Positions 3,525 to 62,528 of a stretch of 64,000 bases of DNA are shown here, in pieces. The notes below the pieces were generated by a model that worked only from the letters and a program-made list of their open reading frames with translations, ran no database searches and was not told the DNA's origin. The translations under genes were made by a program, and so were the position numbers. Source of the DNA: a virus; IMG/VR virus record IMGVR_UViG_3300045988_136451; one strand, written 5' to 3'. Position 1 is the first letter of the stretch; each line of letters opens with the position of its first letter.

Positions 3525-4894
3525 TTGCCGCGAGCGAAGACGTAGACCGCCTCCGATTCTCTCCACTTGCCGTTGACGTACACGCTCGCGAGGCCCTGAT
3601 GCCATCTCGCGCCGTTCGGAACGTCGTAGCGCCATATCAGGCCGCCGTAGTAATCGACGACCGCCTGAACGTCCGCGCCGTTGCGCATATGAACCGCGCG
3701 CCCCTTCGCGTCGTAGGAGCGCAGCGTGAACGTCTGGGAGGTGCGCGGCCTCTGCCGCTTCAAAGCCACCTCGACCGACTTGATTCCGGCCTGCTCGCTT
3801 CGGGCATCGGATGCCTTCCACGAGCGCACGAGGCCGTCAACGCTCCCCACAAGCTCGTAGCGCGCCACGGGGTAGGAGCCGTCTTCCCAGCCGGAGTAGT
3901 AGAACCTCACGGTCTCCCCGGCGCACAGAACCTCGTTCCGCGTTCCCCTGCGACCGATGCACCAGAGCTGCGTCGGGCCGTAGCTGGGTATCTCGAAGTA
4001 GGACACCGCGTCAGACCAAGCGACCTGCTTGCTCCACGCCTGACCGTCGTAGGTGCGGATGCCGAAGAACAGCTTGTCGCCCGTCTTGATGTCGAAGAAC
4101 GACGACGGCTGAACGCTGGCCGACGTGCTGCCGATGCCCTCGACCGCCCGCACGAACTTCGCGTGCTGCGCAACGGTGTCGGGGTTGCGAGCGCCCGACG
4201 GCACCGAATCGCCACGGTAGACGAACAGGTCGTACCCCTTCGCGCCGTTGCAGCGGTTCCACGACACCGCCACGGGCTGCGTGGCGGCTTGGATTATCTC
4301 GATCTTCGGAGGCTCGGCCTTGACATACGACGGGGTTGCGGGGCGCGGGTACGCGCCCTCGTGCCACGTGACGGTGTACATGCCGTCCTTGTTGTTCATG
4401 AACGCGCCGTCCTGCGGGCACGGCCTGCTGGCGTAGTAGCCTTGGCCGTAGCGCCCTTCCCAGTTCGTGATCTCGTTGTCCTCGAAGCTGCCCGTCCACG
4501 GGCGCACGATCATGGGGCATATCGTCAGGTTCTCGTCGTCGGTTCCTATGGGAACGTCCGCGTCGAAGACGGTGTAGGGGCCGTGCCACATGGTGCCGTC
4601 CCGGTCTCCGGCCCACGAGCCGTTAAGCCCCCAGTCGGCGTACTGCCCCCAGAACTTCCGCCCGCTCTTGATGGTCGCGCTCTGGTACACGCCGTTGACC
4701 CAGCACTGGTGCCCGATGGCGTAGCTGAAGAACGAGTTGTAGTACCTCATGCGAACCCAGCACTTTATGCGCACATGGGTGGAGCGCGCGGTGCGGCCCC
4801 ACGTCTCCACGGTGTAGCTGTACATGGTGTTGGGCTGTCCGTTGCTCTGCGTCCAGCCCTCTAGCGGCATGCCTTTGACGAACCATCCCATCAT
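3509..4894 (-). CDS. Tail-associated structural protein, 461 aa, function unknown
   Basis: Long minus-strand ORF in the fibre region with Trp/Gly/Tyr-rich composition. Its ATG overlaps the HNH gene stop (ATGA). Confidence 0.35.
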   Translation of the reverse strand: MMGWFVKGMPLEGWTQSNGQPNTMYSYTVETWGRTARSTHVRIKCWVRMRYYNSFFSYAIGHQCWVNGVYQSATIKSGRKFWGQYADWGLNGSWAGDRDGTMWHGPYTVFDADVPIGTDDENLTICPMIVRPWTGSFEDNEITNWEGRYGQGYYASRPCPQDGAFMNNKDGMYTVTWHEGAYPRPATPSYVKAEPPKIEIIQAATQPVAVSWNRCNGAKGYDLFVYRGDSVPSGARNPDTVAQHAKFVRAVEGIGSTSASVQPSSFFDIKTGDKLFFGIRTYDGQAWSKQVAWSDAVSYFEIPSYGPTQLWCIGRRGTRNEVLCAGETVRFYYSGWEDGSYPVARYELVGSVDGLVRSWKASDARSEQAGIKSVEVALKRQRPRTSQTFTLRSYDAKGRAVHMRNGADVQAVVDYYGGLIWRYDVPNGARWHQGLASVYVNGKWRESEAVYVFARGKWRTL

Positions 4895-5469
4895 CTCACC
4901 GCCATATCTTCATATCTCCAAACATATCCAGCAGCCGTATGATGTCCACGTTTCCCGCTGCATATTAGGTATATGTTTTGAACGGTCGTCGATACATTTC
5001 TCGCCGCATCCGCAATGGAAGAGAAACGACCGATTTCCTTGCCACTCAACGGGTCTATCTGAACAACCGCCCTGCCACGCTGCTCGGTTTTGCTCCTCCT
5101 CATGCGCTCTTTCGTCGGGGCGTAATTGATATTGTCGGATGCAGTGACCCATTCGAGATTCGACACTCGGTTATTCGACCTGTCGCAATCAATATGGTTT
5201 ATAAAGGGCTTGCCGTCATCGTTCTGAATGAATGCAGCCGCTACAAGACGATGGACAAGCGCATTCTCAACGTTCTTGTTTCGGGTCAGCCGAACCACCA
5301 TGTAGCCGTTGGACATGACCTTCTGCTTTAGCACAATTCCCGCATATTCACGAACCGTGCCGTTCCTGTACCTAACAATTCGGTCAAGACTTCGCACGCG
5401 TCCAAGATCACTCACCTGATAGCAGCCCTCGTAGCCCTTTATGTCGCGCCACTCTTCCATCGTATGCAT
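4891..5469 (-). CDS. Free-standing HNH homing endonuclease (NUMOD4-like N-terminus plus HNH_3 domain)
   Basis: EEWRDIKGYEGCYQVSDLGRVRSL (NUMOD4-like) and HRLVAAAF...NHIDCDRSNNRVSNLEW (HNH_3). GC content clearly lower than the flanks. Sits between two structural genes with overlapping stop/start. Confidence 0.75.
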   Translation of the reverse strand: MHTMEEWRDIKGYEGCYQVSDLGRVRSLDRIVRYRNGTVREYAGIVLKQKVMSNGYMVVRLTRNKNVENALVHRLVAAAFIQNDDGKPFINHIDCDRSNNRVSNLEWVTASDNINYAPTKERMRRSKTEQRGRAVVQIDPLSGKEIGRFSSIADAARNVSTTVQNIYLICSGKRGHHTAAGYVWRYEDMAVR

Positions 5470-16285: not shown

Positions 16286-17431
16286 CTATCCTCCGAACTG
16301 GTCGTACGCCGACCGGGCATATGCGATGCGCTTCTCCATCATGGGGACGGAACCGCGCGTGTACACCCGCTCGAACGCCTCCGTTGCCCATGGCAGATCG
16401 GTGATCGCCTTGAACTGGTCGAACGTCATCTTCTCCGCTATCCACGCCTGCGCGCCGTTCGGATACGTGTAAACTCCGTTGCCGGTGAAAGCGTCGAACT
16501 GGGCGGGTGCCTCGCTGACGAAGAACAAGAGCTGCGCCTGTATGTCCGTCCATTCGGTGCCGCGCTCCGACGCGAAGGCGCACAGGTCGCTGAACCGGCC
16601 AGAACCGGCCTCCCACTGAAGCAGCCCGCGTCCGGGGCCTCCGCCTCCTTGGCACGCCGCCGGGTCTACGCCGCTCTCCTGCTGCATGTTCCCGATCACG
16701 CCAGCCGCCGCCTGCTTGCTGAAGCCTTGGCTCATGCAGAAGTTCCACACCACCTCCGCGTTGCTGTTGCCGCTGAAGTCGGCAGCGCCGCCGGACGACG
16801 AGCCTCCGCTTGCGCCGCCTATGGTCGGCCCCGACGTTTGGAGCATCGCGTAAATCTGCGCCACCATGTCCGCGCCTTGGGTGTCCGATAGCTTCGCTTG
16901 GTACATGGATGTCGCCCACTCGATCACGTCGCTCGGTATCTGGCCCACGCTGATCTTCGACGCGGGCCAGTCCGCGACCGCTTGGAGCACCTTGACCCCG
17001 CTCTTCCAATAGCCGCCGTCCTGCTCCGCATCGTCCTGTCCACGGTAGACGAGCCAGAAGCTCTCCTCCAAGCCCGCGTCCCAGTAGAGCTTCTGCAAGC
17101 GGTACAGGACATCGCGCCCCCTTATCTCAACCTCGTCGGTGTTGAGGTTGTAGTAAGGGGCCTTCGTGACGTAGCCCGCGAGGACTTGGTAGCGGTCGGC
17201 CTTGGAGAGGTATATGGCTATCTTGTCCATGGGCATGAGAAGCCCGGTGTACTTCTTCCCCTCGTTCTTCAGATGCAGGATGAAGTCGCTCGAATCGTCC
17301 GTCTTCAGGTTGACGGTGAACCGCGTGATGTCGTCCGAGAGGTCGTACGCGGTCGTCCTCCCGTCGCGCGTCAGCGACACGTTGGCCTCGACCATGGGGG
17401 TGTATGTAAGGATAGCCGTCATGGCTGACAT
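16286..17431 (-). CDS. Tail-associated lysin paralog 3: shared N-terminal module plus phage tail lysozyme-like domain
   Basis: N-terminus MSAMTAILTYTPMV is paralogous to 22452..23552 and 21364..22455. After a Gly/Ser linker comes AAGVIGNMQQESGVDP...GRGLLQWE, the G-N-x3-ESG lysozyme-like signature. Confidence 0.5.
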   Translation of the reverse strand: MSAMTAILTYTPMVEANVSLTRDGRTTAYDLSDDITRFTVNLKTDDSSDFILHLKNEGKKYTGLLMPMDKIAIYLSKADRYQVLAGYVTKAPYYNLNTDEVEIRGRDVLYRLQKLYWDAGLEESFWLVYRGQDDAEQDGGYWKSGVKVLQAVADWPASKISVGQIPSDVIEWATSMYQAKLSDTQGADMVAQIYAMLQTSGPTIGGASGGSSSGGAADFSGNSNAEVVWNFCMSQGFSKQAAAGVIGNMQQESGVDPAACQGGGGPGRGLLQWEAGSGRFSDLCAFASERGTEWTDIQAQLLFFVSEAPAQFDAFTGNGVYTYPNGAQAWIAEKMTFDQFKAITDLPWATEAFERVYTRGSVPMMEKRIAYARSAYDQFGG

Positions 17432-18217: not shown

Positions 18218-18637
18218 TCACCCGGTTCGCTCCCACAGCGGCACCGCCACCGACAACGGCATGTTGTTGTGAGGCCGGTTCTGCGCCATGGGCACGTCGT
18301 CCCTGTGGTTCTCCTCGTCGTTGATGAAGCCCCACCCGGAGGTACCGGTGCCTTGGAAGAACTCGACCCCCGACATGCTCGAACCAGAGGCTAGGTTGCA
18401 CAGGAGCGCGTGCGCATGCCACGGAAGCTCCGCAGCGGTGAGCGCGTGCGCGTTCTCCCCGTACCTTCCGCCCGTCCGGTACGTGCCGCCAGCCGCCACG
18501 AGGTACACGCCCTCGTCGTGGCGCTCCCACGTGGTGCCGGGCCACTCCGCGTTCGGGTCGCCCTTGCAGAACACGAACTCGCCGACGGCGTGCGGGCAGT
18601 AAACGGAGCGCTTCGGCCCGAAGAGGATGCTAGTCAC
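18218..18637 (-). CDS. Tail collar-domain paralog 1, 139 aa
   Basis: YCPHAVGE...WPGTTW...HALTAAELPWHAH...RPHNNMPLSVAVPLWERTG. GTG start with RBS gaaggagg. Confidence 0.5.
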   Translation of the reverse strand: MTSILFGPKRSVYCPHAVGEFVFCKGDPNAEWPGTTWERHDEGVYLVAAGGTYRTGGRYGENAHALTAAELPWHAHALLCNLASGSSMSGVEFFQGTGTSGWGFINDEENHRDDVPMAQNRPHNNMPLSVAVPLWERTG

Positions 18638-18649
18638 GATGCGCCTCCT

Positions 18650-19108
18650 TCAGAGCGAGAAGCCCCCCCCCGACGTGCACTTCCACACGTAGGCTGCGAT
18701 GTACGGCGGAACGTTGTTGTGAGGCTTGTCGCCGCCCGTGTAGTAAATCAGGTTCTGCACCCAGTTCGACCACGCCCCCTCCGTGTAGGCCACGGTGCCG
18801 TCGTCCACCCTGTAGTCCCCGGAAGCGCTCATGTTGAACTTCTTCCCGTTCGGATTGTCGGGGGAGTGCGTGTGCCGGGGCATCTCATCGACCGTGAGGA
18901 CGTGCGCGGCCTCGCCGCCCGTGCTGCCGACTGCGTACGCTCCGGAGGCCGCGCCCGCGCACACGAACGTCCCGGCGGCCAAAAGCTCCCACTTCGTCCC
19001 CGGCCATCTTGCTGACGGGTCGGTGTCCGACAGCGTGAAGTACAGGTCTCCCGCGTCGTACGGGCACAAGACCGATTTACCGCCGCCGCTCTGAACCTTG
19101 ACCGTCAT
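18650..19108 (-). CDS. Tail collar-domain paralog 2 (about 152 aa from MTVKVQ), variant C-terminus
   Basis: LCPYDAGD...WPGTKW...HVLTVDEMPRHTH...KPHNNVPPYIAAYVWKCTSGGGFSL. A G9 homopolymer encodes the last residues. Confidence 0.45.
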   Translation of the reverse strand: MTVKVQSGGGKSVLCPYDAGDLYFTLSDTDPSARWPGTKWELLAAGTFVCAGAASGAYAVGSTGGEAAHVLTVDEMPRHTHSPDNPNGKKFNMSASGDYRVDDGTVAYTEGAWSNWVQNLIYYTGGDKPHNNVPPYIAAYVWKCTSGGGFSL

Positions 19109-19129
19109 AGCGGCATCGCCCCGCACAGA

Positions 19130-19531
19130 TCACGCGGTGCGCCTCCACAGCGGGACGCATACGGAGTACGGCATGTTGTTGTGGGGCTGGCCTCCGCCCG
19201 TGTGGACGGAACTGCTGTCAATCCAGTTGTTGCCAGAAACAGCGGCGTACCTCCCCGTGTTGCCGCCCTTCGACAGCTCGACGTTCCAGTTGTTGCCGCC
19301 GTCGCCGGTGTGGCTGTGGCTCGGAATCTCCTCGATGGTGAGGATGTGCGAGTTCTCCCCACGGTTCGTGAGCGTCTTGAAGTTGTCGCCGGAAGAGACG
19401 AGGTAGGTTGCCTCCTCGTATCTGGCCCATGTGGTGCCGGGCCACTCGCCGTTGGGGTCGAACTCGCAGTGCAGCCACGTTCCAACAGGATGCGGGCAGT
19501 AGTAGCCCTTCCCCTTGACGTTAAGCCGCAT
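19130..19531 (-). CDS. Tail collar-domain paralog 3, 133 aa
   Basis: YCPHPVGT...WPGTTW...HILTIEEIPSHSH...QPHNNMPYSVCVPLWRRTA. Confidence 0.5.
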   Translation of the reverse strand: MRLNVKGKGYYCPHPVGTWLHCEFDPNGEWPGTTWARYEEATYLVSSGDNFKTLTNRGENSHILTIEEIPSHSHTGDGGNNWNVELSKGGNTGRYAAVSGNNWIDSSSVHTGGGQPHNNMPYSVCVPLWRRTA

Positions 19532-19549: not shown

Positions 19550-19990
19550 CTATGCCCCCCCCCTGATCGTGCGCAGGTTTATCTTCACGGGCCAATTAGA
19601 CCCGTTGCAGGTTCCGTCGACATCGGAGAACGTCACCTTCGTCCCGGATATGGCGGCCCTCGCGCGCCAAAGGCACGAGTTGCCCCCAATCGCGGTTCCG
19701 AAATGGAGGTCTACCGTCTTGCCGTTCGGTGAGTACACGCGGAAGGTCGGGAGCCAAACGCCGTCTTCGTACATGAACTCGAAGTCGAGCCACTGGTAGC
19801 TCGCGGCGCTCGCGCTCAACGCGTACACGTTGCCGTTGCTCAAAAGATGGCTGCCGCTCCACAAGGTCGCTACGCCCTGCTTCGAGTACGGGATGGTCGG
19901 TATCTTCGCGAGCGTGAGCGTCGGTATCTGCGCGATGTTGAGCACGGGCGTTTGAACGCCGGACGAGTTACGGTACTTCAGGTACATCTC
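19550..19990 (-). CDS. Small unrelated structural protein inserted in the collar array (about 146 aa from MYLKYRNSS)
   Basis: ORF without the collar motifs. A G9 tract encodes its last codons (RTIRGGA). Confidence 0.3.
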   Translation of the reverse strand, partial: EMYLKYRNSSGVQTPVLNIAQIPTLTLAKIPTIPYSKQGVATLWSGSHLLSNGNVYALSASAASYQWLDFEFMYEDGVWLPTFRVYSPNGKTVDLHFGTAIGGNSCLWRARAAISGTKVTFSDVDGTCNGSNWPVKINLRTIRGGA

Positions 19991-20007
19991 ATGCCTCCTC
20001 TCGGAGG

Positions 20008-20445
20008 CTACGCGGTGCGCCTCCACATATCGACGGAAAGGTACGGGGGCCTGTTCTCATGCGGCTTGTTCCTTCCGGGGAGCCGAACGTACGTATCTTC
20101 CCACTTGACCTTACCGTATTCGCTCGCAATGCCCCAAGCGTCTGCTCCGCCGCTATTGTCGCGCTGCTTCGATTGCAGATTGATTTGCGGCAAAGCGTCT
20201 GCCGACAACGTGACGGAGGCAGCGCCTCCGGTCTTGCCGACGGCGTAATCGCCGGTCGTCGCGCCTCCGCTCGACACGAGGAAGGTGCCCGCAGCGATGC
20301 GCGTCCAAGTCGTCCCCGGCCAGAGAGCGGACGGCGTGACGTTGGATGCGCTGATGTAAACCCCTCCCACCGGGAACGGGCAGAACTGCTGAACGGATGC
20401 TCCGTTGCGCCATTTGAGGACGGACAGGTTAGCCATGCAGACCAC
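20008..20445 (-). CDS. Tail collar-domain paralog 4, 145 aa
   Basis: FCPFPVGG...WPGTTW...RNKPHENRPPYLSVDMWRRTA. Confidence 0.45.
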   Translation of the reverse strand: MVCMANLSVLKWRNGASVQQFCPFPVGGVYISASNVTPSALWPGTTWTRIAAGTFLVSSGGATTGDYAVGKTGGAASVTLSADALPQINLQSKQRDNSGGADAWGIASEYGKVKWEDTYVRLPGRNKPHENRPPYLSVDMWRRTA

Positions 20446-20457
20446 CGCCCGAAGATG

Positions 20458-20870
20458 CTACGCGGTGCGCTTCCACATGTACACGGCGAGCCAAGGCGGC
20501 ATGTTGTTGTGCGCCGCGCCGCGCCGCCGGTATTTGCGATTCCGCCGTCCTGCCACCTGCTGCTGGGCGGCGACGGAGTATGCCACTCCCAGCCCCATGT
20601 GGCGACGTTGCCGCCGTCCTCGACCGCAAGAAGCTGATGATGATGGCTCGGCATCTCGTCGATTGTGAGCACGTGCGTGTTGGAGCCGTACGTATTGTTG
20701 ACCTTGTAGGTGTCGCCCGCCGAGACGAGGTAATGGCCCTCTCCATGCCGATGCCACGTCGTGCCCGGCCAGACCGCGTTGGGGTCGTACAGGCAGAAAA
20801 GGCACGTGCCGACAGGGAACGGGCAGTACTCCTCGAACGACGCGCCTTGGCGGAACTTGATCTTAGCCAC
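20458..20870 (-). pseudogene. Tail collar-domain paralog 5, frame-disrupted at a (GGCGC)3 pentanucleotide repeat (plus-strand GCGCC x3 at 20511..20525)
   Basis: N-terminal part (MAKIKF...YCPFPVGT...WPGTTW...HVLTIDEMPSHHH) is in the frame that starts at 20870. The conserved C-terminus GAAHNNMPPWLAVYMWKRTA is in the -1 frame ending at 20458. Removing one 5-nt unit gives ...IANTGGAAHNNMPP... in frame. Confidence 0.55.
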
Positions 20871-20885: not shown

Positions 20886-21308
20886 CTACGCCGTCCTCTT
20901 CCAGACGTTGACGGAGATATGCAGGGGGTAGTAATCTGCCCCCCCTCCCGTCGCTCTACAGGCATCCATGTCCCAGTTGTACTTTTTATCTTGGGCGATC
21001 CATGGCGGGTAAGAGCCTCTAAGCGTTGTCGTACCAGCCTCGCTGTTGTAGCCGTAATACTCGTGAGTATGCGACGGCATCTGCGCGATGCCTATCTTCT
21101 TCGAGCCTCCGGTTGAACCCGCTGCGGCATAACCGGCCGTTCCGGCGCAAGCCAGTACGCCGCCCGTCAGCTTCGCCCACGAACCGCCCAAGACGGTGGC
21201 GGGGTTCTCCGAGCCGACGGTGAGGTAGAGGCTGTTCACCGGGTACACGAGGTCGAGCATCGTCTTGCCGATGCCGCCCTCCAGATGGAACCCGCTCAAT
21301 CTTGCCAT
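20886..21308 (-). CDS. Tail collar-domain paralog 6 (about 140 aa from MARLSGF)
   Basis: RBS aggagg. ...KIGIAQMPSHTHEYY...ADYYPLHISVNVWKRTA. Confidence 0.45.
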   Translation of the reverse strand: MARLSGFHLEGGIGKTMLDLVYPVNSLYLTVGSENPATVLGGSWAKLTGGVLACAGTAGYAAAGSTGGSKKIGIAQMPSHTHEYYGYNSEAGTTTLRGSYPPWIAQDKKYNWDMDACRATGGGADYYPLHISVNVWKRTA

Positions 21309-21363
21309 TGCCGCCTCCTGTGGTGTCGAATGCTGAAATGATAGCACAGGGCCGCGCGCTCGG

Positions 21364-22455
21364 CTACGCCGCCTTCTCGTAGCGGAAGAAGTGCGTCCAG
21401 CTGCCGGAGATTTTCACCACGGATATCTCGTCGCCCGTCTGGTCTCCGCCCTGCCCGTATATGCCGCCGTCCTCGGCGCTGTGAGCGCCCGCCGTCTCGC
21501 CGTTGCCGATATACCATTCCGTGTGAGCGGCGCGCCACATGATGTCGCCGCGCTTCAGCGAGCCGACGTTGCCGTCGTACGGGTACATCTTCCATCCGAT
21601 GGGCGGAAGAACCTCCTGCATGCGCGTCGTGTTGAACGTCCAGCTTCCAAGCTCCTCGCGCGTCCATCCACCGGCGAGGAGCGAGTAGAAGACCAATGAC
21701 GAGCAGTCGTAGTCGGGGTTCCCGTCGCGGTTCCCCTGACTGTACCCGTGGCTGTCGTCGTTGCATATCTGTATGGCCCACTGCACGGCCTTCTCGACCG
21801 CCTCGTACGAGGCGGTTCCCCCTCCGGCTGACGACGAGCCGCCGGAGCCTATGGCGGGGCCTGACGTTTGCAGCATCTTGTAAATCTGGTTCACCATGTC
21901 CGCGCCTTGGGTGTCGGCCAGCTTGACGCGGTACATCGACGTTGCGAACTCGATCACGTCGTCGGGCAGCTGCCCTATGGCGATCTTCGACGCGTCCCAG
22001 TTGGCGACGTTGGTGAGCACGTTCGCCCCCACGCGCCAGTACTCATCGTGCGTCTTCCACGTCGAGCTGTTCGTGAACAGGAGCTGCTGCGATTCGTACA
22101 GCCCCGCGTCCCAGTAGAGCGCTTGGAGGCGGTAGAGCGCGCACTTCCCGGACATCTCGAAGTCGGCGTTGTAAAGCCGCCAGAAGTCGCACTTGGTGAT
22201 GTACCCGGCGAAGACCGGGTACTCGTCGCCCTTGGACAGGCGTATGACGATTCTGTCCATGGGGGTGAACGCCCCGTTGTACTTCCCTCCCTTGTTCTGA
22301 AGGGACAGGGAGAACGTGGAGCAGCTATCGACGTTCAGGTTTATCTTGAAGCCGGTGATGTCGTCGGTGAGGTCGTACGCGCGCACGGAGCCGTCCGGCT
22401 GGCGCACCGCCACCTCGGCCTTGACCATCGGCGTGTAGGCGAGTATGGCCGTCAT
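21364..22455 (-). CDS. Tail-associated lysin paralog 2: shared N-terminal module plus CHAP/NlpC-P60-like cysteine peptidase domain
   Basis: MTAILAYTPMVKAEV... N-terminal module. C-terminus DCSSLVFYSL (Cys) and HTEWYIGNGETAGAHS (His). Start overlaps the stop of 22452..23552. The track ORF 21364..22731 includes upstream read-through. Confidence 0.5.
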   Translation of the reverse strand: MTAILAYTPMVKAEVAVRQPDGSVRAYDLTDDITGFKINLNVDSCSTFSLSLQNKGGKYNGAFTPMDRIVIRLSKGDEYPVFAGYITKCDFWRLYNADFEMSGKCALYRLQALYWDAGLYESQQLLFTNSSTWKTHDEYWRVGANVLTNVANWDASKIAIGQLPDDVIEFATSMYRVKLADTQGADMVNQIYKMLQTSGPAIGSGGSSSAGGGTASYEAVEKAVQWAIQICNDDSHGYSQGNRDGNPDYDCSSLVFYSLLAGGWTREELGSWTFNTTRMQEVLPPIGWKMYPYDGNVGSLKRGDIMWRAAHTEWYIGNGETAGAHSAEDGGIYGQGGDQTGDEISVVKISGSWTHFFRYEKAA

Positions 22456-23552
22456 GGCAGAAGCCCCGGCCTGCACGGATAGGCCTCGTCGAGTATAACG
22501 CCGCCGTTCCAGCCCCACCCGGTGCCCTGCGGCACGTAGGTGTTGCCGGAGTTCACCCATTCCGTCAGCGACCACTCGTGCACGTACCCTATGTTGTCGA
22601 GAACCACGCCGTTGCCGACGTAGATTCCCACATGGCCGTACACGCATCCGGGGTTGCCGGAGTTGTCCCAGCCGTAGCCGAACACGGCTGCTCCGACCTT
22701 GACCTTGCTCCAATCCGTCGATGCGCCCCACGCCCGCGCCGCCTCGCGCGCCGAAGACTTGCGGGGTATCTTGATTCCGGCAGCGTCGAACACGTCGTCA
22801 ACCCACTTCTGGCAGAAGCCGCCCTGCGTGGTTATGCCGTACCTCTCGGAGTTCTTCGCGACCTCGACGATCTTCTTCTGCGCCTCGGTCACGTCGCCGT
22901 CGAACACGTCCCCGCCGAGGCCCCCGATGTCCCCCGTCGCCTCCGTGAAGGTAGGCCCCGACACCTGCAACATCGAGTAGATTTGATTCACCATGTCGGC
23001 TCCCTGCGTGTCGGCCAGCCTCGCATCGTACATCGACAGCGCCCACTCGATGACCTCGGTCGGTATCTGGCCCACGCTGATGCGCTCGGCGGGCCAACCG
23101 GCGACGCTCATCAGGACGTTGGCTGCGGCGCGCCAGTAGCCGCCGTCCTGATCGGAGCTTTCGGCGCTCTGGAAAGTGACAAGCTCGCGAGACGCGAGAA
23201 GGCCGCTGTCCCAGTAAAGGGCCTGCAAGCGCCATAGAACGTCCTTGCCCGTTATGGTGACGGGCTGCGAGTTCAGCATGAACATGGGAACCTTCGTGAC
23301 GTAGCCCGCTAGGACTTGGTAGCGGTTCGCCTTGGAGAGGTATATGGCTATCGCGTCCATGGGCTTGAACGCCCCGTCGTACTTGCCGCCGACGTTCTGA
23401 AGCGTGAGCGAGAACGTGGAGCAGCCGTCGGTGTTCAGCGTCACGGAGAAGTCGGTGATGTCGTCGGTGAGGTCGTAGTACTTGTAGCCGTTCGCCGTCT
23501 GCGCCCTCACCTGCGCGCTCACCATCGGCGTGTAGGCGAGTATGGCCGTCAT
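22452..23552 (-). CDS. Tail-associated lysin paralog 1: shared N-terminal module plus CHAP/NlpC-P60-like domain
   Basis: MTAILAYTPMVSAQV... N-terminal module. C-terminus GFCQKWVDDVF (Cys) ... YGHVGIYVGNG (His). Confidence 0.5.
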   Translation of the reverse strand: MTAILAYTPMVSAQVRAQTANGYKYYDLTDDITDFSVTLNTDGCSTFSLTLQNVGGKYDGAFKPMDAIAIYLSKANRYQVLAGYVTKVPMFMLNSQPVTITGKDVLWRLQALYWDSGLLASRELVTFQSAESSDQDGGYWRAAANVLMSVAGWPAERISVGQIPTEVIEWALSMYDARLADTQGADMVNQIYSMLQVSGPTFTEATGDIGGLGGDVFDGDVTEAQKKIVEVAKNSERYGITTQGGFCQKWVDDVFDAAGIKIPRKSSAREAARAWGASTDWSKVKVGAAVFGYGWDNSGNPGCVYGHVGIYVGNGVVLDNIGYVHEWSLTEWVNSGNTYVPQGTGWGWNGGVILDEAYPCRPGLLP

Positions 23553-34644: not shown

Positions 34645-34726
34645 GCCCTTGACAGGCCGTGCCCCCCCCCATAACGGTTCCTTCGGGCGGCCAGATCAAC
34701 ATAGTCAGGCTCCCGACACCGGCGTA

Positions 34727-55125: not shown

Positions 55126-58113
55126 CTACAGGCCGCCACACCACGGCCTCCCGGCCCATCCGTCGGTGAGGCCCATCTGCCTCTCGAACTCCATGGAGCG
55201 CTCGAAGTAGAACTGCTCCTTCGCAAGGTTCTCCCTCATGCCGACCTCCGGCATGTAGCCGCCCTGCGCCGCGCCGGTGATGCGCAGCAGGGTTCCCTCT
55301 CCAAGCGCCTCGACCTGATCTGACAGGAGGTTCACGCACACCGTCGAAACGCAGTCCGCCATGTCGTTGTGACAGTTTCCGGAAATGAGAATCTTGCCGT
55401 TCCTGCGCGTGACAAGCGTTCCATTTTGAACCTCGAAGCAATACACCATGCCGTCGTATCGGCTTATATCGACCTTACTTCTCTCAACCGCCGATTCTTT
55501 GCGACCGAGAAGGCATATTTCGTGAAATTCCCCGCCCGACGGCGTTTTGCAATCATAGTATGACGTTGCGGTTCCGTTTGTCATAAATACGGCCTGCATC
55601 GCATCGGCAACGCCCTTGTCCTTTATCCCCGCTCTGATGTAAGCGTTCTTGTCCTTGCTAAAGGTGCCGTCTCCATGCAGGAAGCCATCTATGAAGCAGT
55701 CCTGCTCCTTCTTGCCCCATTCCACGAAAATCTCCGAAGGTATTGCAAGGTCACCAGCTCCATCGAAAAACCTTTCCAGCGTCCAGTCTGCAAGCCATTT
55801 GCTATACACCTTGTATTCGTATAGCACTTTCCTCTGATATCCGCTTTTCTTGCACTCTCGTTTAGACCACTCGAAGCCAGACCCATCAAGAGCCGCCTCG
55901 ATATACACGATTCCATCTTCCTTCGACTGCGAGATTATAAAAACTCCATCACGCCGAAGCGCAATCTTTCCGCCATCCGCCAACCAGAAACCGACGATCC
56001 TTGCAAAGCAGCCGAAATCAACTCCGCTCGGAAGATCGACCAAAGCACCTGCATTCCCGTTTTCACCACACCTTGGGATGAAGAACTTAGACCGATTGGC
56101 CAAGATGCCATCAATAGGGGACTTCATAAGCTCAGTCATCTTCCCGTGGTTGCACAGCCTGTACAGCATCCTATGATTCGGTGTCACCTTGAAATCGACA
56201 AGACGGTTCGAGTATCCGTACATTTCGCCATGGTACTCGTATGCGATTTTCCTGATCGGCTGCTGCCACTCGATCTTGCCGTCCTTTGAATACGTTGCGA
56301 CGCGTCTGCCCATGACGGCATCTTTGAACAGAACCCATCCATCCTCCGTCAAAACCTCCGTTGCGGCATCGTGACATACGTCGCCCGTCTCCGGGTGGTC
56401 TACCTTCTTGCCGTTCTTCAGGATGAGGAACTTCAGCTCCTTCTCCAACATGCACACCTCGCCGAGACCCAGTATGTCGTCTATCACGAACGGGGCGTGA
56501 ACCCATCCTTGGTAGAGGGCCTGCTTGAACCGCTCCCAGCGCTTCATGTTCTTCTTCTCGGTGGCGGTGTCCTCCTCGATGACGACCGAGCCGTTGAGGA
56601 ACGTCCCCATCGTCCTCTCCAAGTTCAGCGTGTCGATGAGCGACGCGCTCTGGTACTGGTCGAACGTGCAGCGGACGATGTTGAACAGCTTCAGGTACTC
56701 GATGATCTGCTTCTGCACGACCGTGTAGTTGATGCGCCGAACGCCGTGCTCGTCGGGAGGGAAGTCCTTCGCTTGGAAAATCTTCTGCACGTCGATGAAG
56801 GCGTGGAAGAAGCCGTCCTCGCACAGCTCCTTGTGGCCGATTGCTATGCAGAAGTTGTCGTTCACGCGCCCAGCGTCGCAGTGCATGACGTACTGGCGGT
56901 CGATGCGCCCGTGCCTAGCCGGGACGTTCGCGTTGCCCTGAAGGTCTGGGTACGCGTTGAACATCTTCTCAACCATGTCGGGGTTCAGGTACGCGTCCTG
57001 CGACTTGGCGAACTGCGCGCGGTACTCAACCCTGAACTTCTCCGGGTCGCGCTCCTCCTCCATGGCGAACGATTCGTCCTGCTCCGGAGGAAGCAGCAGG
57101 GGCTTGCCTATCGCCGGTACGTACTGGCCGTCCGTGAACAGCTCCCACGACGGCGCTTGCATGCAGAACATGTCGGGGTGCTTCGAGCTGCCGTCCTCGT
57201 CGCGCTCGAAGGCGTTCTTGAACAGCTTGTAGAACATGCCCACCTCCGACACGGGGGTGGACGGGACGACTATCATGGCCTCCTTGCCGACCTGACGCAG
57301 CGACGGCGTTAGGGCCTTCCAGATCGCCTCCGACGATGCCTTCAGGCCGTCGTCGCGACCGTAGGCGAACTCGTCGTACGCCTGTATGATCGAGGCGTTG
57401 CCTCGCGCGGAATCGGGGTTGGCGGCCTTCGGCTCGACGAGAAGCGATGCCCTGCGCCTTATGTTCTTCCTGATGCCCGATTCGATCTGCCGCATCTCCT
57501 CGCGCTCGTTGAACACCTTGTCCGCAGCCGTTTCCAGCTTTATCGCGGTCTCGGACAGCGAGCTAGTCCACGGGTCGAACCACGAGCACTCTATGATGGT
57601 GTTCAGGATGTCGAGGTACAGCGCGGACTTCGCTTGGCTGAACGTCGTCGCCATGACATCGACGTGCATCTCCTTGCCGTCCGGCAGGTGGAGGACGCGC
57701 TGGGGGTTGCCGAGCGAGAGCATCTGGGCCAGCTTGTAGTCGATGAGGTGCGACACGGTGAAGCCCTTTGAGCCGCGTCGCCCGAGGCAGAAGATGTTCT
57801 CGCGGAAGTGCTTGTATCCGCGCTTCTTCAGCCACTCGATGCGGTCGAAGATGTCGAGCGGAATCTTCACCGGGCCGCCGTTGCGCGTGCTCTCGCGCCA
57901 CCCTTCTATCACTTGGAAGTCGTACCGGTTCATCTGGTCGATCTCCAAGAAGATGATCTTCATGAGCGTCTTCTGGCGGGGGTACAGCGGTGTCCATTGC
58001 AGGGACGGCGTGTACATGTCGTAGAAGTCGCAGATCGGCGGGAGCCGTTCGAGCGCCAGCTTCGGGGCCGCCAGCGACGAGAAGACATCTATGCCGTGCT
58101 TGATCTCGCCCAT
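55126..58113 (-). CDS. Terminase large subunit interrupted by a LAGLIDADG intein
   Basis: Position after a small coupled gene and before portal. Extein of about 660 aa. Intein CHDAATEVLTEDG... with FWLADGG and FIDGFLHGDGT motifs, ending ...ILISGN followed by Cys. Confidence 0.55.
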   Translation of the reverse strand: MGEIKHGIDVFSSLAAPKLALERLPPICDFYDMYTPSLQWTPLYPRQKTLMKIIFLEIDQMNRYDFQVIEGWRESTRNGGPVKIPLDIFDRIEWLKKRGYKHFRENIFCLGRRGSKGFTVSHLIDYKLAQMLSLGNPQRVLHLPDGKEMHVDVMATTFSQAKSALYLDILNTIIECSWFDPWTSSLSETAIKLETAADKVFNEREEMRQIESGIRKNIRRRASLLVEPKAANPDSARGNASIIQAYDEFAYGRDDGLKASSEAIWKALTPSLRQVGKEAMIVVPSTPVSEVGMFYKLFKNAFERDEDGSSKHPDMFCMQAPSWELFTDGQYVPAIGKPLLLPPEQDESFAMEEERDPEKFRVEYRAQFAKSQDAYLNPDMVEKMFNAYPDLQGNANVPARHGRIDRQYVMHCDAGRVNDNFCIAIGHKELCEDGFFHAFIDVQKIFQAKDFPPDEHGVRRINYTVVQKQIIEYLKLFNIVRCTFDQYQSASLIDTLNLERTMGTFLNGSVVIEEDTATEKKNMKRWERFKQALYQGWVHAPFVIDDILGLGEVCMLEKELKFLILKNGKKVDHPETGDVCHDAATEVLTEDGWVLFKDAVMGRRVATYSKDGKIEWQQPIRKIAYEYHGEMYGYSNRLVDFKVTPNHRMLYRLCNHGKMTELMKSPIDGILANRSKFFIPRCGENGNAGALVDLPSGVDFGCFARIVGFWLADGGKIALRRDGVFIISQSKEDGIVYIEAALDGSGFEWSKRECKKSGYQRKVLYEYKVYSKWLADWTLERFFDGAGDLAIPSEIFVEWGKKEQDCFIDGFLHGDGTFSKDKNAYIRAGIKDKGVADAMQAVFMTNGTATSYYDCKTPSGGEFHEICLLGRKESAVERSKVDISRYDGMVYCFEVQNGTLVTRRNGKILISGNCHNDMADCVSTVCVNLLSDQVEALGEGTLLRITGAAQGGYMPEVGMRENLAKEQFYFERSMEFERQMGLTDGWAGRPWCGGL
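55375..56376 (-). mobile_element. Intein (about 334 aa) within the large terminase gene
   Basis: Boundaries GDV|C ... SGN|C, hand-counted. Unusual GN rather than HN terminus. Confidence 0.45.
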
Positions 58114-61706: not shown

Positions 61707-62528
61707 TCACAGCCACTTGCCCTCGGTTGAGAATCTTTGCCAGTCGCCGGAGGCGAGCACGTTGCCGAGCGTCGGGCACCAGTCGCCGCGCCTGTTGTCC
61801 ATGAGCCACTTCCGGAAGTCGGGGTTGCGAAGCGCCCGCAGAACGTCCTCCCTCCAACGCCCAACGCCGTCGCCCGCAGCCTCTGCCGCCTCGGCCACGA
61901 TCTCCCGCTCGCGCTCCAAGAAGCTCTCGTTCTGGTACCGCAGCGGAACGTCCGGGTACGCCTCCCTGAAGTCCCGATGCGCAGCGTCGATTAAATAATC
62001 GAGTTCTGCGGTGCCCTGCCCTTGGGTGTCTGCGGAGATTTTCCGCGCGCGCGCGCGTTCATTCGTTCCTCCCTCATGTCCATCTCTGTCAGGAGTGGTT
62101 TGGTTGTTACAGGTGGGGCTTTGGTTGATGTTACTTTGGTTGATATTACTTTGTGTCGTGTTATCCGACGACGGGTTATCCGATGACGGGTTTTCCGTCA
62201 TCGGGGCTGAACTGGTGTTTTCCGTGTACGGCCTGATAAAGTATCTTACGCCGCTGAACGTGCCGTCATTCTCGCTTTTAACGGTTTCTCGTCGGACGTA
62301 TCCAAGCTCTTCGAGTTCCTTGACGGCGCTGCGCACGGCATCGCGCCCGTCGGCCATGCACTTCGATATGCCGTTGATCGAATAGTCCCACTCTTCGGAG
62401 CAGGAGAGCATGAAGGCGAGAACCCCCATCGCTTTGGCGCTCAACCTCTTGTCTCGTAGAAAGTCGATCTTGACGACCATGAAGCCGTCTGCGCCGGTGT
62501 CCACCATGCATTGCTTGTCTGCTCTCAT
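61707..62528 (-). CDS. Replication initiator / replisome-organiser-like winged-helix protein (about 274 aa from MRADKQC), with internal repeat region
   Basis: N-terminal MGVLAFMLS...GISKCMADGRDAVRSAVKELEELGYVRRE fits a winged-HTH initiator N-domain. Central linker NPSSDNPSSD...NINQSNINQS is encoded by direct DNA repeats. Confidence 0.45.
   Translation of the reverse strand: MRADKQCMVDTGADGFMVVKIDFLRDKRLSAKAMGVLAFMLSCSEEWDYSINGISKCMADGRDAVRSAVKELEELGYVRRETVKSENDGTFSGVRYFIRPYTENTSSAPMTENPSSDNPSSDNTTQSNINQSNINQSPTCNNQTTPDRDGHEGGTNERARARKISADTQGQGTAELDYLIDAAHRDFREAYPDVPLRYQNESFLEREREIVAEAAEAAGDGVGRWREDVLRALRNPDFRKWLMDNRRGDWCPTLGNVLASGDWQRFSTEGKWL
61986..62001. repeat. Copy of TCGATTAAATAATCGA (inside the 3' part of the initiator-like gene; encodes ELDYLIDA)
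   Basis: Perfect palindrome variant. Confidence 0.5.
62044..62210. repeat. Iteron-like repeat cluster inside the initiator-like gene (candidate origin of replication)
   Basis: (CG)7 at 62044..62058. Two 15-bp direct repeats tttggttgat(g/a)ttac. Two 15-bp repeats ccga(c/t)gacgggtt. Inverted repeat ccgatgacgg-N5-ccgtcatcgg. Locally AT-richer. Confidence 0.45.

Follow-up and report, generated by a model that had tools for sequence, protein, structure and literature searches.

Is a short pentanucleotide repeat, at which a phage tail-tip gene loses its reading frame, a switch that turns a receptor-binding protein on and off, or the trace of a gene copy that has been lost for good? The question is raised by par5, a gene of the IMG/VR virus record IMGVR_UViG_3300045988_136451, of which a stretch of 64,000 nucleotides was analysed as a whole (hereafter the window). 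An earlier note on this DNA, made from its letters, had proposed a slipped-strand contingency locus or else a sequencing or assembly indel. On balance, we regard par5 as probably a lineage-fixed frameshift pseudogene, located inside an array of tail-tip cassettes that is variable through poly-G runs.

The tail-tip array and the frame break in par5

The window exhibits 99.3-99.7% identity across ~60 kb with Eggerthella phage LE2-3 (MW679026, 112 kb, host E. lenta DSM 2243) and is a strain of it. The phage carrying the array is an Eggerthella myovirus of roughly 112-119 kb, close kin of LE2-3. A scan of the genome collection returned distant relatives only and, within Eggerthella, no copy as a prophage, and no paper describing LE2-3 was found in the literature. 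Another phage of E. lenta, KL11, reported in a preprint, is a 44-kb siphovirus that is not related to LE2-3.

Several loci at a distance from the array also distinguish the two phages. The terminase large subunit encoded by the window (55126-58113, minus strand) counts 995 aa vs 661 aa in LE2-3, and its gene harbors an in-frame insertion of ~1 kb (~55371-56378) with intein-like ends and a weak LAGLIDADG_3 match below the Pfam cut-off; this insertion is a probable intein, present in the window's strain only. A gene for a 192-aa homing endonuclease of the NUMOD4 + HNH_3 type (4891-5469, minus strand) is inserted relative to LE2-3, and a (CG)7 dinucleotide repeat (62044-62057) is found within a patch that is divergent from LE2-3.

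The array itself extends over 3.1 kb of the minus strand and is formed by six Gp10_C-type genes in a head-to-tail row, encoding stand-alone proteins of 133-158 aa, with a small ORF (orfX) among them that has no match in Pfam or PHROG (Table 1). Once repaired, par5 matches the Pfam family PF21939 (Gp10_C) with 44 bits (cut-off 27) over profile positions 6-139 of 139; par2, par4, and par6 also score above the cut-off of this family, par1 and par3 just below it. The paralogs had been labelled "collar" proteins, a name without support from Pfam, since none of them matched the tail collar family PF07484 at E <= 0.01 and Gp10_C alone was found. Repaired par5 and its five sisters match the family of the T4 gp10 C-terminal domain (PF21939; PDB 2FKK, 5HX2), but they stand alone in tandem, whereas the T4 domain forms the C-terminus of a 602-aa wedge protein. 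On either side of the array are three paralogous genes, all on the minus strand (16286-17431, 21364-22458, and 22452-23552), that share the same N-terminal module (MTAILAYTPMV...) and carry differing cell-wall hydrolase domains (Phage_lysozyme2, Amidase_5, and NlpC/P60-like).

Table 1. Features of the tail-tip array in the window
Feature	Position	Strand	Description
par1	18218..18637	-	Intact paralog
par2	18650..19126	-	Intact paralog; G9 run at 18663-18671, past the conserved C-terminus
par3	19130..19531	-	Intact paralog
orfX	19550..20026	-	Small ORF unlike the paralogs; G9 run at 19555-19563, at its 3' end
Run-on ORF	19989..20870	-	293 aa, made by the frameshift; overlaps par4 out of frame
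par4	20008..20445	-	Intact Gp10_C paralog
par5	20458..20870	-	Frameshifted Gp10_C-type tail-tip paralog
Displaced block	20511->20458	-	HNNMPPWLAVYMWKRTA + stop, shifted to the -1/+2 frame with respect to the start codon
Overlap of two LE2-3 homology blocks	20463..20513		Marks where recombination or deletion joined the DNA, within the conserved 3' end
(GGCGC)3.4 tract	20511..20527	-	Gly-Gly-Ala-Ala codons before the invariant His-Asn-Asn; site of the frame break
par6	20886..21347	-	Intact paralog; Gly-Gly-Gly motif encoded GGGA+G7 (G7 run at 20939-20945)

The plus strand does show the three GCGCC units announced by the earlier note (20511-20525), followed by a partial copy that ends at 20527, which makes 3.4 units, or (GGCGC)3.4 on the minus strand. 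This 17-nt tract, GGC(GGCGC)3 minus the last C (GGCGGCGCGGCGCGGCG), is flanked by ACC and CAC. Starting with a GTG at 20870, par5 encodes 117 native residues followed by ...TGGAARRTTTCRLGSP..., and its N-terminal part (20870 to ~20526) and its C-terminal block lie in different frames, the latter being found in the -1/+2 frame in agreement with the -1 frame given before. As also foreseen, the three-unit ORF overruns the next gene, and an identical 293-aa run-on ORF is called on contig UMEI01033119.1. The deletion of one unit does restore a paralog, although the intact protein has 135 aa and not the 132 aa that had been announced; a fourth GGCGC unit added in silico leaves the frame broken.

In the window, no other tandem repeat has a unit of 4-7 nt in at least three copies. 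Markov-shuffled windows yield 0.10-0.18 such pentanucleotide repeats each, so that the repeat by itself is merely mildly unusual; the weight rests on the exact coincidence of repeat and frame break. Like a contingency locus, par5 presents a tandem repeat within the ORF, with a unit length indivisible by three.

The block that is put out of frame is the best-conserved one of the family. In an alignment of the paralogs with their database homologues, the most conserved stretch is TGGGxAHNNMPPYLAVYxWKRTA, and the H, N, N, P, W, R, and T of HNNMPPWLAVYMWKRTA correspond to invariant or nearly invariant columns of Gp10_C-type proteins; the segment from EMPSHxH to this C-terminal motif is hypervariable. 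In the window, the motif GGGxAHNNMPPY...W.RT is out of frame with the N-terminal part of par5, and it comes into frame only after the removal of one unit or in two natural alleles (P0130 and L014). AlphaFold2 modelled an intact ortholog (P0003) with moderate overall confidence (pLDDT 67.5), which peaks (pLDDT 91) in the block covering the C-terminal strand 126-134. A Foldseek search of this model against the PDB returned nothing significant (best E = 0.86), the top non-significant matches being a phage tail fibre and the T4 gp10 C-terminal domain. The family profile picks out T4 gp10 among solved structures (~40 residues, E ~1e-6), and in PHROG matches the domain forms the very C-terminal end of long tail and tail-fibre proteins. 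Since the lost block contains the best-conserved motif as well as the C-terminal core strand, the frameshifted par5 product is very probably non-functional, and the loss of this block should abolish folding.

Tract alleles and poly-G runs among related phages

The 17-nt tract is widespread. It occurs in a further IMG/VR contig (3300045988_116257), in eight of the nine unselected contigs from human-gut metagenomes that carry the par5 allele of the window, and in all 10 contigs of 51-119 kb, which were built with various assemblers in various studies. P0121, the frameshifted ORF that results, is recorded on 191 contigs and in 315 index blocks, and altogether the three-unit tract is found in ~190 or more independent human-gut contigs. 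Among relatives, the tract exhibits three states, one frameshifted (17 nt) and two in frame (12 and 15 nt). Counted by lineage, the ratio is milder than by contig, with ~3 lineages in frame to 4-5 frameshifted.

The 12-nt state (two units, TGGAAHNN) was recovered in six assemblies from six samples (L047-L052), which have one 5-nt unit fewer than the par5 of the window and otherwise differ from it by 1-4 nt. Repeat number is thus polymorphic, with two vs three units among otherwise near-identical genomes, and the in-frame allele expected from the loss of one unit does occur in nature, as P0130 is exactly the protein predicted by the repair. Only two of the six two-unit alleles are otherwise intact, and the fully canonical gene P0130 is restricted to two contigs. 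The other four carry a second, independent 1-nt deletion near codon 25, which is of two kinds (CTTTTCTG->CTTTTTG, or T4->T3). Both kinds share the CTTTTCTG site, at ~nt 72-75 of the par5 gene (L049-L052); such repeated deletions may mark a minor hot spot of mutation, or the loss of par5 may have been selected more than once. Further variants include a par5 truncated at 83 aa and another in which a +1 insertion (G4->G5) compensates the +5. Taken by their sequences, the additional frameshifts of the two-unit alleles give par5 the look of a dispensable, decaying paralog.

The 15-nt state, GGC GGC GGC GCG GCG (TGGGAAHNN, in frame), is known from one contig (L014). GGGAAHNN or GGGQAHNN is also encoded by more distant orthologs (P0003, P0145, P0146, and GGGQAHNN alleles), and because this state matches both the family consensus and the distant orthologs, it is probably ancestral. 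The 17-nt tract can be derived from it by duplication of GC, or from the 12-nt state by gain of a unit, and these two origins are equally parsimonious: the scenarios 15->17, 12->17, and 17->12 require two events each, and the locus is a recombinant mosaic. Across all 26 sequences examined, 2-3 units were observed only. The two N-terminal haplotypes of par5 (A, window-like, and B, LE2-3-like) both occur with two and with three units, a four-gamete pattern that requires either recombination or recurrent gain and loss of units, the latter favouring a switch.

Recombination also modifies the number of paralogs. LE2-3 (L001 5463-6398) holds ~835 bp with two extra paralogs that are absent from the window, and only four are present in the dominant metagenomic lineage, where par5 is joined to the 3' end of par3 by a deletion; paralogs are therefore gained and lost as the conserved ends of the genes recombine. 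The junction in par5 (Table 1) was considered as a cause of the frameshift and rejected, as the alignment places it further 3', at the WKRTA/stop codons and thus outside the tract.

A second type of variation concerns homopolymers. In conserved DNA, isolated indels between the window and LE2-3 were found only in G/C runs, at 18671 (9 vs 8) and 34671 (9 vs 10). The second of these runs (34662-34670; C9, and C10 in LE2-3) is intergenic and located downstream of the major capsid protein gene. The window contains three G/C runs of at least 9 nt vs 0.16-0.37 expected, and three of its four G/C runs of at least 7 nt fall inside the 3.1-kb array (P = 4.5e-4).

Within the array, run lengths differ among relatives. 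The run at the end of par2 counts G8, G9, or G10 among close relatives, which moves the stop codon relative to the start of par1, and the run at the end of orfX is G9 in the window and G8 in other assemblies. Similarly, the run at the end of the LE2-3-type par5 is G6, G8, or G9 across assemblies, and that of paralog A is G8 or G9. In one allele class of par6 homologues, the run encoding Gly-Gly-Gly is out of frame as G6, G8, or G9 and in frame as G10, par6 homologues as a whole being ON only at G7/G10; in the window-type class, the run is broken by differing synonymous substitutions (GGGAGGGGGGG, GGGGGGAGGGG, and GGGGGGTGGGG), all in frame. The length-variable runs of par2, orfX, and par6, which are poly-G as read along the coding strand, have homologous sites in L001, L003, L004, L024, L026, and L047-L063.

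According to an HMM survey, nearly every related genome harbors one to four out-of-frame paralogs, mostly with a G8-G10 run located 10-15 nt ahead of the C-terminal motif. A relative with 75% identity at the DNA level likewise presents out-of-frame paralogs and two G10 runs. LE2-3 itself has two paralogs out of frame and a third without a stop, lost at a G9 run. Its GenBank record contains two run-on ORFs that result from frameshifts at a G9 and a G8 run, LE23_93 (L001 6291-7211), a 306-aa "tail protein", and LE23_97 (L001 5429-5878), a 149-aa "baseplate wedge subunit" whose C-terminus is out of frame; the locus tags LE23_94 and LE23_95 are missing from this record. A G run of at least 8 nt inside or at the end of a tail-gene ORF, with length and frame differing among close relatives as in a poly-G contingency locus, is thus a trait of the neighbouring paralogs rather than of the window's par5. 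The best reading of these comparisons would be that the poly-G runs, rather than the par5 tract, are the truly hypermutable elements of the array, which makes them a candidate contingency system in a gut Eggerthella phage.

Stable null allele or reversible switch

The interpretation of the earlier note is upheld in part, as regards the frameshift and the slippage-type polymorphism. Active on/off toggling of par5, as first proposed, is not borne out by the relatives, given that the three-unit state is identical in the window, the second IMG/VR contig, 8 of the 9 unselected contigs, and the 191 contigs encoding P0121. All of eleven genomes with at most 0.6% upstream divergence carry the 17-nt tract, yet their par2 run is G8, G9, or G10. 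The three-unit tract is also kept beside at least five different downstream junctions, which arose when par5 recombined with the 3' ends of other paralogs and which give run-on tails of 142-154 and 293 aa. Ten hypothetical alleles (one, two, or four units and the 15-nt state, on the window, dominant, and B-type haplotypes) had no exact counterpart among ~15 billion proteins, in a look-up that misses variants with any further substitution or another called start. Likewise, no four-unit allele was found in an IMG/VR pattern scan, in the fetched contigs, or in the three haplotype backgrounds that were looked up. All these tract states are read from consensus assemblies, which cannot show minority variants within a population. 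At that level, the invariance of the dominant haplotype beside variable poly-G runs would argue against fast switching of the tract. The homologues share the disruption in large numbers and most two-unit alleles are decayed, a pattern close to the fixed pseudogene that the earlier note had itself named as a refutation of the switch.

Under the pseudogene reading that we favour, the lesion would most likely have arisen once, by replication slippage in a short GC-rich repeat, either through the gain of a GGCGC unit by a two-unit allele or through the duplication of GC in a 15-nt allele. The null allele would then have been inherited stably, the loss of the redundant par5 being tolerated or favoured, while the surrounding array evolves fast by two other routes, recombination at the 3' ends and length change of the poly-G runs.

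An unlikely rival is that (GGCGC)n acts as a slow, reversible slipped-strand switch, ON with two units and OFF with three. We likewise consider unlikely its suggested role in host-range bet-hedging, in which par5-ON variants would turn up now and then in the population while the poly-G switches of the neighbours act faster. Contingency loci have been described in phages before (Gomez et al., 2025, PMC12633550; Sorensen et al., 2021, as cited in PMC10877375). The tract has the position within an ORF and the unit length that a switch needs, it occupies the same codon positions as the length-variable poly-G runs of the sister paralogs, and natural alleles exactly one unit apart exist, both of them on both N-terminal haplotypes. 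However, no unit-number variant is seen on the dominant haplotype in spite of its 191 or more contigs; nor did a four-unit allele appear, and the three-unit state survived at least five rearrangements. The two-unit alleles are mostly inactivated elsewhere in the gene, and the 17-nt tract can be reached from a 15-nt ancestor by a 2-nt duplication without any unit slippage. Moreover, the tract has merely three units, whereas known pentanucleotide switches have many more, and with 2-3 units it falls short of the length expected of a hypermutable repeat.

A wider proposal, which seems to us rather improbable, is that the whole array of 4-10 paralogs forms a combinatorial phase-variation system, in which the poly-G runs at the Gly-Gly-Gly motif switch fast and the par5 (GGCGC)n tract more slowly but reversibly. 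If true, virion populations would show shifting subsets of receptor-binding tips, possibly countering the capsule of E. lenta, which is phase-variable (PMC13131767).

Translational recoding would leave the gene functional, through either -1 frameshifting by the ribosome or a +5 hop in which peptidyl-tRNA-Gly leaves one GGC and pairs again with the GGC of the following unit, and is very improbable. The shift that is needed (-1/+2/+5) suits both mechanisms, identical GGC codons 5 nt apart offer matching take-off and landing codons, and the frameshifted allele is as widespread and stable as would be expected of a programmed event. Nevertheless, ACC GGC GGC GCG GCG CGG CGC ACA contains no slippery heptamer of the X XXY YYZ type, and in folding stability the region ranks below its shuffles (z = +1.89, with 198 of 200 shuffles at least as stable). 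The three-unit alleles differ in sequence downstream of CACAACAACATGCCG, and there is therefore no conserved stimulator. In addition, in-frame alleles of par5 exist, and the out-of-frame sister paralogs would need shifts of differing direction, +1 in one and -1/+2 in others. A frameshift or hop was thus rejected, owing to the absence of a slippery site and of a stable or conserved downstream structure and to the inconsistent shift directions of the paralogs.

Finally, GC-rich repeats can be difficult for some sequencing platforms, but a sequencing or assembly artefact hiding a two-unit, intact gene is scarcely credible and is excluded because the same 17-nt tract was obtained with SPAdes, MEGAHIT, and Logan from many samples and studies, some at 18-24x, and a 5-nt insertion is not typical of Illumina errors.

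Known contingency loci and significance for gut Eggerthella phages

The opa genes of Neisseria harbor a coding pentanucleotide repeat, (CTCTT)n, with many units and high-frequency switching. As in opa, par5 has a 5-nt unit within the ORF, of which each gain or loss shifts the frame so that one state in three is ON; unlike opa, its tract counts 2-3 units and is located near the 3' end rather than in a leader peptide.

Among phages, the receptor-binding and tail genes of Campylobacter Fletchervirus phages contain poly-G tracts that are hypermutable (Sorensen et al., 2021, Cell Rep 35:109214, as cited in PMC10877375). That system resembles the present one in that simple repeats in tail or host-recognition genes set the frame, the G6-G10 runs of the neighbours of par5 deciding here between ON and OFF. 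It differs from the present one in that the par5 tract is an apparently stable three-unit pentanucleotide, the host is a Gram-positive gut actinobacterium, and the locus is known from sequences alone. Mononucleotide runs of 6 nt or more vary in T2/T4 and other phages at measured frequencies of ~1e-4 to 1e-1, with reversion demonstrated (Gomez, Barrick and Waters, 2025, bioRxiv, PMC12633550). These loci, for which bet-hedging has been proposed (PMC12633550), have in common with par5 that slippage at short repeats shifts the frame of phage genes, but par5 is known from consensus sequences, which argue for stability. By analogy, the array looks like a new example of the poly-G/homopolymer kind of variable tail gene, in a phage of a Gram-positive gut bacterium.

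The par5 tract alone amounts to an ordinary frameshift that slippage produced in a redundant paralog, and a more promising lead is offered by the poly-G runs of the array. For annotation, par5 is best entered as a pseudogene, and the "tail protein" ORFs of 293 aa (or 145 aa) in its relatives are run-on artefacts. The phage species is common in human-gut metagenomes, and its strains differ in the copy number of their tail-tip genes and in which copies are in frame, mostly via poly-G. If the poly-G tracts switch within populations, phage contingency loci would be extended to a Gram-positive gut host, and such switching would bear on the prediction of host range and on the phage-based editing of Eggerthella lenta.
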